A DNA stretch of 64,000 nucleotides from Escherichia coli (GTDB lineage Bacteria > Pseudomonadota > Gammaproteobacteria > Enterobacterales > Enterobacteriaceae): the NCBI RefSeq assembly GCF_044647545.1, contig NZ_CP172818.1, one strand, 5' to 3'. The notes under the pieces are model-generated. The model did no database searches, had not been told where the DNA came from, and saw only the letters and a list, made by a program, of their open reading frames with translations. This document shows, piece after piece, positions 6,636 to 63,754 of the stretch. Position numbers and translations under genes: made by a program. Positions within the stretch are counted from its first letter, which is position 1. Each line of letters opens with the position of its first letter.

Positions 6636-6668
6636 GGCCCGTCACCGCCAGGTGGTGGGCTTTTTTTT
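6636..6668 (+). terminator. Rho-independent terminator after tig
   Basis: GC-rich imperfect hairpin (GGCCCGTCACC...GGTGGTGGGC) followed by T8 run. Confidence 0.7.
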
Positions 6669-6739
6669 GTCATGAATTTTGCATGGAACCGTGCGAAAAG
6701 CCTCTTTCGGTGTTAGCGTAACAACAAAAGATTGTTATG

Positions 6740-12085: not shown

Positions 12086-14531
<2,446 letters not shown>

Positions 14532-19053: not shown

Positions 19054-22600
<3,547 letters not shown>

Positions 22601-22712
22601 ATAGCGCAATATTTCATCGTTGGTGCAAAAATGTAACGCACTGTGCACTGTCATAGTGCGTTTTCATTTTCAATCTTCTTAACTTCCTGCTCTCTTTCTC
22701 GTTTTTCATTTC

Positions 22713-22728
22713 TGGCACACCGCTTGCA
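22713..22728 (+). promoter_or_regulatory. sigma54 (-24/-12) promoter of glnK-amtB
   Basis: TGGCAC-N5-TTGCA at 22713-22728, about 50 nt upstream of glnK; TGGTGCA / GCAC...GTGC NtrC-like half-sites upstream at about 22620-22665. Confidence 0.75.
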
Positions 22729-22780
22729 ATACCTTCTTCGTGTAGCAGAACCATTACCGAATTCTGACCGGAGGGGATCT

Positions 22781-23119
22781 ATGAAGCTGGTGACCGTGAT
22801 AATCAAACCATTCAAGCTGGAAGACGTTCGTGAAGCGTTATCTTCCATTGGTATTCAGGGCCTGACCGTCACCGAAGTGAAAGGTTTCGGGCGTCAGAAA
22901 GGACATGCCGAGCTGTACCGGGGGGCGGAATACAGCGTCAATTTCCTGCCAAAAGTAAAAATTGATGTGGCGATTGCTGATGACCAACTCGATGAAGTGA
23001 TCGATATCGTCAGTAAGGCGGCTTACACCGGAAAAATTGGCGACGGCAAAATCTTCGTCGCTGAATTGCAACGCGTCATTCGTATTCGTACCGGCGAAGC
23101 CGACGAAGCGGCGCTGTAA
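22781..23119 (+). CDS. glnK: Nitrogen regulatory protein PII-2
   Basis: 112 aa from MKLVTVIIKPFKLEDVREAL; track ORF is 5'-extended. Confidence 0.95.
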   Translation: MKLVTVIIKPFKLEDVREALSSIGIQGLTVTEVKGFGRQKGHAELYRGAEYSVNFLPKVKIDVAIADDQLDEVIDIVSKAAYTGKIGDGKIFVAELQRVIRIRTGEADEAAL

Positions 23120-23148
23120 TCTCTGGCACACAGCAACAGGAACGAAAA

Positions 23149-24435
23149 ATGAAGATAGCGACGATAAAAACTGGGCTTGCTTCACTGGCGATGCTGCCGG
23201 GACTGGTAATGGCTGCACCTGCGGTGGCCGATAAAGCCGACAATGCGTTTATGATGATTTGTACTGCGCTGGTGCTGTTTATGACTATTCCGGGGATTGC
23301 CCTGTTTTACGGTGGGTTGATTCGCGGCAAAAACGTGCTGTCGATGCTGACGCAGGTGACGGTGACGTTTGCACTGGTCTGTATTCTCTGGGTGGTTTAC
23401 GGTTACTCGCTGGCGTTTGGTGAGGGAAACAACTTCTTCGGCAACATTAACTGGTTGATGCTGAAAAATATCGAACTGACGGCGGTGATGGGCAGCATTT
23501 ATCAGTATATCCACGTAGCGTTTCAGGGATCGTTTGCCTGCATTACCGTAGGCTTGATAGTTGGAGCACTGGCGGAACGAATCCGTTTCTCAGCTGTGTT
23601 GATTTTCGTGGTGGTATGGCTGACGCTCTCCTACATTCCGATTGCGCATATGGTCTGGGGCGGCGGTTTGCTGGCTTCTCACGGTGCACTGGATTTTGCG
23701 GGTGGCACTGTGGTGCACATTAACGCCGCAATCGCCGGTCTGGTGGGCGCGTATCTGATAGGCAAACGCGTGGGCTTCGGCAAAGAGGCGTTTAAACCGC
23801 ACAACCTGCCGATGGTCTTCACCGGGACTGCCATTCTCTATATCGGTTGGTTTGGCTTTAACGCCGGGTCAGCGGGCACGGCGAATGAAATCGCAGCACT
23901 GGCATTTGTGAATACTGTGGTCGCAACGGCGGCGGCAATTCTTGGCTGGATCTTCGGTGAATGGGCGCTGCGTGGTAAGCCTTCACTGCTGGGAGCGTGT
24001 TCAGGCGCGATTGCCGGTCTGGTCGGCGTGACGCCAGCGTGTGGCTACATTGGTGTTGGCGGCGCGTTGATTATCGGCGTGGTAGCTGGTCTGGCGGGCT
24101 TGTGGGGCGTTACCATGCTCAAACGCTTGCTGCGGGTGGATGATCCCTGCGATGTCTTCGGTGTGCACGGCGTTTGTGGCATTGTCGGCTGTATCATGAC
24201 CGGGATTTTTGCCGCCAGTTCGCTGGGTGGCGTGGGCTTCGCTGAAGGTGTGACGATGGGCCATCAGTTGCTGGTACAGCTGGAAAGCATCGCCATTACG
24301 ATCGTCTGGTCCGGTGTGGTGGCATTTATTGGCTACAAACTGGCGGATCTGACGGTTGGCCTGCGTGTGCCGGAAGAACAAGAGCGAGAAGGGCTGGACG
24401 TCAACAGCCACGGCGAGAATGCCTATAACGCGTAA
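23149..24435 (+). CDS. amtB: Ammonium transporter
   Basis: 428 aa with signal peptide and Amt-family membrane domain; recognised as AmtB. Confidence 0.96.
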   Translation: MKIATIKTGLASLAMLPGLVMAAPAVADKADNAFMMICTALVLFMTIPGIALFYGGLIRGKNVLSMLTQVTVTFALVCILWVVYGYSLAFGEGNNFFGNINWLMLKNIELTAVMGSIYQYIHVAFQGSFACITVGLIVGALAERIRFSAVLIFVVVWLTLSYIPIAHMVWGGGLLASHGALDFAGGTVVHINAAIAGLVGAYLIGKRVGFGKEAFKPHNLPMVFTGTAILYIGWFGFNAGSAGTANEIAALAFVNTVVATAAAILGWIFGEWALRGKPSLLGACSGAIAGLVGVTPACGYIGVGGALIIGVVAGLAGLWGVTMLKRLLRVDDPCDVFGVHGVCGIVGCIMTGIFAASSLGGVGFAEGVTMGHQLLVQLESIAITIVWSGVVAFIGYKLADLTVGLRVPEEQEREGLDVNSHGENAYNA

Positions 24436-35943: not shown

Positions 35944-36591
35944 ATGGCACGAAAAACCAAACAAGAAGCGCAAGAAACGCGCCAACACATCCTCGATGTG
36001 GCTCTACGTCTTTTCTCACAGCAGGGGGTATCATCCACCTCGCTGGGTGAGATTGCAAAAGCAGCTGGCGTTACGCGCGGTGCAATCTACTGGCATTTTA
36101 AAGACAAGTCGGATTTGTTCAGTGAGATCTGGGAACTGTCAGAATCCAATATTGGTGAACTAGAGCTTGAGTATCAGGCAAAATTCCCTGGCGATCCACT
36201 CTCAGTATTAAGAGAGATATTAATTCATGTTCTTGAATCCACGGTGACAGAAGAACGGCGTCGATTATTGATGGAGATTATATTCTACAAATGCGAATTT
36301 GTCGGAGAAATGGCTGTTGTGCAACAGGCACAACGTAATCTCTGTCTGGAAAGTTATGACCGTATAGAACAAACGTTAAAACATTGTATTGAAGCGAAAA
36401 TGTTGCCTGCGGATTTAATGACGCGTCGCGCAGCAATTATTATGCGCGGCTATATTTCCGGCCTGATGGAAAACTGGCTCTTTGCCCCGCAATCTTTTGA
36501 TCTTAAAAAAGAAGCCCGCGATTACGTCGCCATCTTACTGGAGATGTATCTCCTGTGCCCCACGCTTCGTAATCCTGCCACTAACGAATAA
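35944..36591 (+). CDS. acrR: TetR-family repressor of acrAB
   Basis: 215 aa with N-terminal TetR HTH; recognised as AcrR. Confidence 0.97.
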
Positions 36592-62461: not shown

Positions 62462-63754
62462 ATGATGAACACGGAAGGTAATAACGATAACAAACCCCTC
62501 GGTCTATGGAACGTCGTTTCCATCGGTATTGGGGCAATGGTGGGGGCGGGGATCTTCGCGCTGCTGGGGCAGGCTGCGTTGCTAATGGAAGCCTCGACCT
62601 GGGTCGCCTTTGCTTTTGGCGGTATTGTGGCGATGTTTTCCGGTTATGCCTATGCGCGCCTGGGGGCGAGCTATCCCAGCAATGGCGGTATTATCGACTT
62701 CTTTCGTCGCGGATTAGGCAACGGCGTCTTTTCGCTGGCACTCTCGTTATTGTACCTGTTGACGCTGGCGGTGAGCATCGCCATGGTCGCCCGTGCTTTT
62801 GGCGCTTATGCCGTGCAGTTTTTGCATGAAGGCAGTCAGGAGGAGCACCTTATATTGCTCTACGCGTTGGGGATCATTGCGGTGATGACGCTTTTCAACT
62901 CCTTAAGCAACCATGCGGTAGGGCGGCTGGAAGTGATCCTCGTCGGCATTAAAATGATGATCCTGTTATTGCTGATCATTGCCGGTGTCTGGTCGCTGCA
63001 ACCGGCGCATATTTCCGTCTCTGCGCCCCCCAGCTCCGGTGCGTTCTTCTCCTGTATCGGGATAACCTTCCTTGCCTATGCGGGCTTTGGCATGATGGCG
63101 AACGCGGCGGATAAAGTGAAAGATCCGCAGGTCATTATGCCACGGGCGTTTCTGGTGGCGATTGGCGTTACCACGTTGCTTTATATCTCGCTGGCGCTGG
63201 TTTTGCTTAGCGATGTATCGGCATTAGAGTTAGAAAAATATGCCGATACCGCCGTAGCGCAGGCAGCTTCTCCGCTGCTCGGGCATGTGGGTTATGTGAT
63301 CGTCGTCATCGGCGCTTTACTGGCGACGGCTTCAGCCATCAACGCGAACCTGTTCGCCGTGTTTAACATCATGGACAACATGGGCAGCGAACGCGAACTG
63401 CCGAAGCTAATGAATAAATCCCTGTGGCGGCAGAGTACCTGGGGCAACATCATTGTCGTGGTGCTGATTATGCTGATGACGGCGGCGCTGAATTTAGGCT
63501 CACTCGCCAGCGTTGCCAGCACCACCTTTTTGATCTGCTATCTGGCGGTGTTTGTGGTGGCGATCCGCCTACGTCATGATATTCACGCCTCGTTGCCGAT
63601 TCTTATCGTTGGTACGTTGGTGATGTTGTTGGTGATCGTTGGCTTTATCTACAGCCTGTGGTCCCAGGGCAGCCGTGCGTTGATATGGATTATTGGTGCA
63701 ATCTTACTCAGCCTTATTGTGGCAATGGTCATGAAGCGCAATAAAACCGTATAA
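62462..63754 (+). CDS. ybaT: APC-superfamily amino acid transporter (putative)
   Basis: 430 aa, about 12 TM segments; starts 3 nt after the glsA stop (operon). Confidence 0.92.
   Translation: MMNTEGNNDNKPLGLWNVVSIGIGAMVGAGIFALLGQAALLMEASTWVAFAFGGIVAMFSGYAYARLGASYPSNGGIIDFFRRGLGNGVFSLALSLLYLLTLAVSIAMVARAFGAYAVQFLHEGSQEEHLILLYALGIIAVMTLFNSLSNHAVGRLEVILVGIKMMILLLLIIAGVWSLQPAHISVSAPPSSGAFFSCIGITFLAYAGFGMMANAADKVKDPQVIMPRAFLVAIGVTTLLYISLALVLLSDVSALELEKYADTAVAQAASPLLGHVGYVIVVIGALLATASAINANLFAVFNIMDNMGSERELPKLMNKSLWRQSTWGNIIVVVLIMLMTAALNLGSLASVASTTFLICYLAVFVVAIRLRHDIHASLPILIVGTLVMLLVIVGFIYSLWSQGSRALIWIIGAILLSLIVAMVMKRNKTV

Follow-up and report, generated by a model that had tools for sequence, protein, structure and literature searches.

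The glnK-amtB promoter region of Escherichia coli: a sigma-54 element, weak upstream NtrC-like sites and a terminator-like hairpin in the mdlB-glnK spacer

The DNA between mdlB and glnK in the 64-kb window (the whole stretch of Escherichia coli DNA that was analysed) is almost certainly glnKp, the known nitrogen-regulated sigma-54 promoter of the glnK-amtB operon, activated by NtrC from weak upstream sites. This promoter is already well studied, and its confirmation here brings no new biology. Published experiments cover sigma-54 occupancy, NtrC occupancy and NtrC dependence, and the motifs, their conservation and their helical phasing were computed here. What is added is incremental: the distance between enhancer and promoter is quantised across genera, the upstream sites are weak and composite, and mdlB probably has a terminator made of NtrC half-sites. 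The glnK-amtB operon is a core part of the response of enterobacteria to nitrogen starvation, its promoter serves as a standard reporter for the activity of NtrC, and the additions may help the engineering of sigma-54 promoters or studies of enhancer geometry.

The features of the region are as follows (window coordinates; positions with a minus sign are relative to the predicted transcription start).

22598-22600, plus strand: mdlB stop codon (RefSeq annotation of an identical genome)
22611-22627, no strand assigned: putative distal NtrC-like 17-mer A, ATTTCATCGTTGGTGCA, centred at -120, whose right half TGGTGCA is perfect and whose left half is poor
22624-22640, no strand assigned: putative overlapping NtrC-like 17-mer B, TGCAAAAATGTAACGCA, centred at -107, 20 bp from C
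22635-22672, plus strand: terminator-like hairpin, AACGCACTGTG/cactgt/CATAGTGCGTT (22635-22662) followed by TTCATTTTCA (terminator scan; RNA fold)
22644-22660, no strand assigned: putative proximal NtrC site C, TGCACTGTCATAGTGCG, centred at 22652, which is -87 (dyad match and conservation)
22661-22711, plus strand: T-rich and CT-rich spacer from enhancer to promoter (read from the sequence)
22712-22728, plus strand: sigma-54 promoter glnKp, CTGGCACACCGCTTGCA (exact motif, weight matrix, naming of the 17-mer by ChIP-seq and gSELEX, conservation)
22732-22739, plus strand: CT-rich anti-Shine-Dalgarno segment, CCTTCTTC, reaching the start site from upstream (after Levy et al.)
22739, plus strand: predicted transcription start (promoter geometry)
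22770-22776, plus strand: glnK Shine-Dalgarno sequence GGAGGGG (read from the sequence; conserved in the alignment)
22781-23119, plus strand: glnK, PII-2 signal protein (RefSeq annotation; NF007946)
23149-24435, plus strand: amtB, ammonium channel (RefSeq annotation; NF007947)

The locus and its sigma-54 element

The gene order that RefSeq gives for an identical E. coli genome is decR, mdlA, mdlB, glnK and amtB, followed by tesB on the opposite strand. GlnK reaches 236.8 bits with the NCBIfam GlnK-type equivalog NF007946 (cut-off 181) and stays below the cut-off of the GlnB model, while AmtB passes the equivalog NF007947 with 880 bits. A GlnK-type PII gene is thus directly followed by an ammonium channel gene, with a gap of 29 bp. 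This gap has no sigma-70-like promoter, and the scan downstream of glnK found no terminator-like site before one weak match inside amtB. Of 5426 complete E. coli genomes, 5423 have the locus (query 22400-23200) in single copy, the spacer being at least 95% identical, and several complete chromosomes, including FDAARGOS_497, are 100% identical over the 801 bases queried. The mdlB-glnK spacer is 180 bp long and differs from K-12 MG1655 at one base only (22674, in the T-rich spacer, which no motif includes), and results published for K-12 can therefore be applied here. A U00096.2 coordinate equals the window coordinate plus 449,041. A structured RNA or riboswitch in the spacer was considered and rejected, as an Rfam search gave no match at E <= 1. 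For comparison across species, one genome per species was scanned with GlnK, giving 80 loci, 15 of them from Enterobacterales; mdlB lies upstream of glnK in the same direction in all 15.

The original prediction described TGGCAC-N5-TTGCA at 22713-22728 as a near-consensus -24/-12 element, and the match proves to be exact. It reads TGGCAC (22713-22718), the spacer ACCGC and TTGCA (22724-22728). The GG doublet at 22714-22715 corresponds to -25/-24 and the GC doublet at 22726-22727 to -13/-12, so that the two doublets are exactly one helical turn apart, as in sigma-54 promoters. On both strands of the window, glnKp is the sole exact match to TGGCAC-N5-TTGCW (0.12 expected), and at least one such match occurred in 9 of 100 shuffles. 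When one mismatch is allowed, there is no enrichment (3 found, 3.7 expected). The RpoN weight-matrix scan that had been proposed as a check used the 41 intergenic ChIP-seq motifs of Bonocora et al. with glnK excluded. With this matrix CTGGCACACCGCTTGCA scores 16.46 bits, slightly above the median of the true sites used for training (15.6), and ranks third in the window.

Could the match be a chance or non-productive sigma-54 site, with glnK transcribed from another promoter? A score at least as high as that of glnKp has a chance rate of 1.26e-6 per position, or 0.16 per window, two further window sites reach such a score, and most sigma-54 ChIP sites of E. coli are intragenic and of unknown function (PMC4591121). 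Within the 180-bp spacer and in the correct orientation (164 positions), however, the expectation falls to 2e-4. Across the 15 Enterobacterales the bases TGGCA and TTGC are invariant in the alignment, and the element is found in all 15 loci with 0-1 mismatch, 59-104 nt before the glnK ATG; it is also kept in most other gammaproteobacterial loci examined. An alternative sigma-70 promoter for glnK was sought and rejected, since no sigma-70-like promoter was found in 22300-23300, and glnK expression needs NtrC (PMC3870243, PMC4066584). A chance or non-productive match is therefore highly improbable, and CTGGCACACCGCTTGCA is read as the promoter of glnK-amtB.

This reading agrees with experiments on K-12. 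A ChIP-seq peak for sigma-54, OS03, with a signal 18-fold above threshold, was assigned to the same 17-mer on the plus strand upstream of glnK (PMC4591121). In gSELEX with purified proteins, the mdlB>glnK spacer gave 61% with RpoN holoenzyme, 56% with NtrC and 67% with both together, and the listing names the identical glnKp 17-mer (PMC8743547). The literature thus places sigma-54 holoenzyme on a K-12 17-mer that is identical to the one in the window. Despite its perfect match to the -12/-24 consensus, glnKp is among the weakest promoters tested (PMC7045595).

From the promoter geometry, transcription is predicted to start at 22739, which is 12 nt past the C of the -12 GC doublet and 19 positions past the centre of the motif. 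This would leave a 42-nt leader to glnK. The same start, 42 nt before glnK, was predicted in PMC4591121, where the glnK promoter is listed with the EcoCyc label 'P' for predicted. An experimentally mapped 5' end of glnK was not found in the accessible papers.

The same matrix gave further matches elsewhere in the window. The top one is TTGTCATGAATTTTGCA at 6667-6683 on the plus strand, which is identical to the ChIP-seq site OS02 upstream of clpP; its score is inflated because OS02 belongs to the training set. At 63191-63207 on the plus strand, CTGGCGCTGGTTTTGCT has the K-12 sequence CTGGCACTGGTTTTGCT, the intragenic ChIP-seq site IS02 in ybaT, apart from one base, where G replaces A in the -24 element. 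The position of IS02 expected by the glnK coordinate offset is about 300 bp away. If the two are the same site, sigma-54 may bind more weakly in this strain. On the minus strand, TTGGCGCGTTTCTTGCG at 35969-35985 is identical to the ChIP-seq site IA05 inside acrR, in antisense orientation. Also on the minus strand, CTGGCATTATTAATGCT at 14294-14310 scores as high as glnKp (16.8 bits) and is antisense inside ybaV. The text of PMC4591121 does not list it as a ChIP-seq motif, and it is probably a chance or unbound match.

Upstream NtrC-like sites, spacing and nitrogen control

Motifs resembling NtrC half-sites had been placed about 50-100 bp upstream of the promoter, and they do lie 53-92 bp upstream of the -24 element, with TGGTGCA at 22621-22627 and GCAC-N7-GTGC inside TGCACTGTCATAGTGCG. 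The motifs are present and conserved in Enterobacterales, but the E. coli copies taken alone are no better than chance. Compared with TGCACCA-N3-TGGTGCA, site C has 4 mismatches in 14 positions, B has 5 and A has 6, none of which exceeds the chance level of the window; the score of B is equalled by 0.28% of window positions. Sites with at most 3 mismatches to TGCACC-N5-GGTGCA number 32 in the window against 36 expected, and a claim of significance from the E. coli sequence alone was therefore rejected.

The support comes instead from other species. Orthologues of site C in the 15 Enterobacterales have 1-4 mismatches in 14 positions, with E. coli (at 4) among the weakest, and the columns GCAC and T.GTGCG are invariant. 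TGGTGCA is kept in 8 of 9 Enterobacteriaceae, and at the offset of site A (-33 from C) two Citrobacter loci and one Enterobacter locus have only 3 mismatches in 14 positions. Site B, whose ACGCA block is conserved in the alignment, is the best upstream candidate in 8 of the 15 loci, including Yersinia and Rahnella. Overall, the alignment contains four conserved islands in otherwise diverged DNA: the TGGTGCA...ACGCA block, the dyad, the promoter and the ribosome-binding site. All 15 loci carry an NtrC-like 17-mer 61-116 bp upstream of the sigma-54 element. These data support a reading in which the E. coli sites are weak copies of NtrC sites whose reality rests on phylogenetic footprinting and position. 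Candidate partners of C for the assembly of an NtrC oligomer are B, at a distance of 20 bp, and A, at 33 bp. Pairs of NtrC sites spaced by 33 bp are the rule in Pseudomonas loci and are clear in Citrobacter too.

The distance between dyad and promoter is quantised in steps of about 10.7 bp, which matches the prediction of looping that depends on the face of the helix. Measured centre to centre, site C and the promoter are 68 bp apart in E. coli, the shortest class among the Enterobacterales distances of 68, 78, 99, 111-112 and 121-123 bp. Over 53 non-redundant loci, the distances cluster at 67-69, 78-79, 89-92, 98-102, 109-115, 121-125 and 130-132 bp. The Rayleigh statistic for these 53 loci is R = 0.66-0.69 at periods of 10.5-11 bp (0.69 at about 10.7 bp) and 0.15 at 9.5 bp, with p-values that are nominal because the loci are phylogenetically related. 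The enhancer of E. coli is thus at a distance and in a helical phase compatible with looping. An IHF site was considered as an explanation for looping over about 68 bp and rejected, since 22660-22712 holds no IHF-like site WATCAANNNNTTR with at most one mismatch. Looping would therefore occur without IHF and probably relies on the T-rich DNA itself.

The 29 loci from Pseudomonas and Stutzerimonas have a longer-leader layout that differs from the enterobacterial one. Most of them carry sigma-54 elements of the TGGCAAG-N4-CTGCT type, with leaders of about 170-250 nt to the glnK homologue, and in many a pair of NtrC dyads spaced by 33 bp is found about 90 bp upstream of the promoter.

Binding of NtrC to this region and its requirement for expression are known from the literature. 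In nitrogen-starved cells, glnK-amtB is peak 1 of NtrC ChIP-seq (39.7-fold), and glnK mRNA was not readily detected in a glnG deletion, with complementation restoring it (PMC4066584). The ChIP-seq bin 471741-471821 corresponds to 22700-22780 of the window and covers the core promoter, not the dyads, which fits looping or limited resolution; at the resolution of ChIP-seq and gSELEX, the 17-mers are not singled out. Transcription from glnKp has been described as exclusively dependent on phosphorylated NtrC (NtrC~P), and NtrC had a specific activity at this promoter that was 400-fold higher in ammonium starvation than when ammonium was plentiful (PMC3870243). Synthetic enhancers also gave NtrC-induced expression from glnKp (Levy et al. 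2017, bioRxiv 10.1101/086108). Dependence on the activator is thus documented by the glnG deletion and by the role of NtrC~P, and the spacer offers no sigma-70-like promoter. Together with the identity of glnK and amtB and the binding of sigma-54 and NtrC in K-12, these results support the proposal that nitrogen limitation controls this PII-2/ammonium channel operon.

The mechanism proposed for the region is as follows. Sigma-54 RNA polymerase binds 22712-22728 and would be held there as a closed complex. When nitrogen is low, NtrB would phosphorylate NtrC, and NtrC~P would assemble on the -87 dyad (22644-22660) together with one or two of the degenerate, overlapping sites at -107 and -120. 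A loop of about 68 bp of T-rich DNA would bring it to the polymerase, where it would spend ATP on promoter opening. Transcription would then start near 22739, giving a glnK-amtB transcript whose leader is 42 nt long. Since the E. coli sites match the consensus poorly, glnKp should need a high level of NtrC~P, and firing only at that level would make glnK a late gene of nitrogen starvation. The idea that glnKp requires high NtrC~P is credited to Ninfa's group (PMC3870243).

The terminator-like hairpin and the anti-Shine-Dalgarno segment

A stable, GC-containing stem-loop followed by a U-tract, the sequence pattern of an intrinsic terminator, lies 35 nt past the mdlB stop codon. It has an 11-bp stem, a 6-nt loop and a folding energy of -14.9 kcal/mol, followed by the tail UUCAUUUUC. 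The RNA fold has a z of -4.09, and none of 200 shuffles folds equally well. The hairpin overlaps sites B and C in such a way that its 5' arm is the right half of B and its 3' arm the right half of C. A hairpin of -12 to -18 kcal/mol with a T5-T8 tract is present in all 9 Enterobacteriaceae and a hairpin with T-tract in none of the 6 other Enterobacterales. In the alignment of the nine sequences, pairing covers 92% of cells, and covariation is seen at one pair (C-G in 5, U-A in 4), possibly as the result of a single event. Neither mdlB nor glnK appears in the 3'-end-mapping supplements of PMC7815308.

These features raise the question of whether the GCAC...GTGC dyad is only the intrinsic terminator of mdlAB and no NtrC site at all, with NtrC acting elsewhere or indirectly. 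The stability of the fold, its place behind mdlB, the T-tracts shared by all nine Enterobacteriaceae and the covarying pair would all be expected from a terminator. However, the 17-bp dyad is equally conserved where the extended stem and the T-tract are missing, in Yersinia, Rahnella, Acerihabitans and Photorhabdus. In many genera the dyad also keeps its helical phase relative to the promoter, and NtrC binds the spacer in vivo and in vitro (PMC4066584, PMC8743547). A role as terminator alone is thus very unlikely indeed; moreover, the two roles are mutually compatible, and the dyad is taken as the proximal NtrC site of glnKp, with the mdlB terminator probably built from NtrC half-sites.

A second element in the spacer concerns translation. 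Levy et al. (bioRxiv 10.1101/086108) mapped the silencing of read-through expression by glnKp to a CT-rich region of 7 nt centred at -4 and explained it by anti-Shine-Dalgarno pairing. In the window, CCTTCTT at 22732-22738 is a CT-rich 7-mer with the same centre. In silico, pairing between CCTTCTTC and the glnK ribosome-binding site is confined to RNAs begun upstream of the promoter, and the mean unpaired probability of this site is 0.44 in the native transcript versus 0.11 in upstream-begun RNAs. When the upstream 39 nt were shuffled, 15% of the sequences sequestered the ribosome-binding site equally, a control that lends weak support, since CT-rich sequences in general have a tendency to pair. 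Among the 15 Enterobacterales, 11 show the effect, with a varying size, and conservation is not claimed.

Taken together, the two elements suggest a wider reading, for which the chance is put a little short of even. The glnK enhancer of Enterobacteriaceae may have a dual use, serving at the DNA level as two adjacent NtrC half-sites (the right halves of B and C) and at the RNA level as the stem with which an intrinsic terminator would end the transcripts of mdlAB. Terminator and anti-Shine-Dalgarno segment would then shield glnK-amtB from read-through in two layers, and in the course of evolution the enhancer-to-promoter spacer would have gained and lost DNA in units of a full helical turn, with E. 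coli in the shortest class. No description of an overlap between terminator and enhancer was found in the literature searched.

Comparison with known systems

The closest known system is glnKp of E. coli K-12 (site OS03, Bonocora et al. 2015), which has the same locus, the same 17-mer, the same flanking genes and the same predicted leader of 42 nt. Nothing of substance differs, and the window comes from a strain other than K-12. The glnK-amtB promoter of K-12 is said to have been studied by van Heeswijk et al. in 1996 and by Atkinson et al. in 2002.

The 'insulator' function of sigma-54 promoters described by Levy et al. in 2017 has glnKp as its founding example, and the sequestration is reproduced here by folding. 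The evidence in that work comes from synthetic constructs, and the native mdlB or any terminator is never mentioned there.

Similar to glnKp, E. coli glnAp2 is a sigma-54 promoter of the -24/-12 type that is activated by NtrC~P from upstream dyads by looping. Its two strong NtrC sites are centred at -108 and -140 (PMC1865078). In addition, glnAp2 has weaker sites and an overlapping sigma-70 promoter, glnAp1. In glnKp, a single moderate dyad at -87 has degenerate neighbours, and a sigma-70 promoter is absent. According to what Atkinson and colleagues reportedly found in 2002, glnKp needs more NtrC~P than glnAp2.
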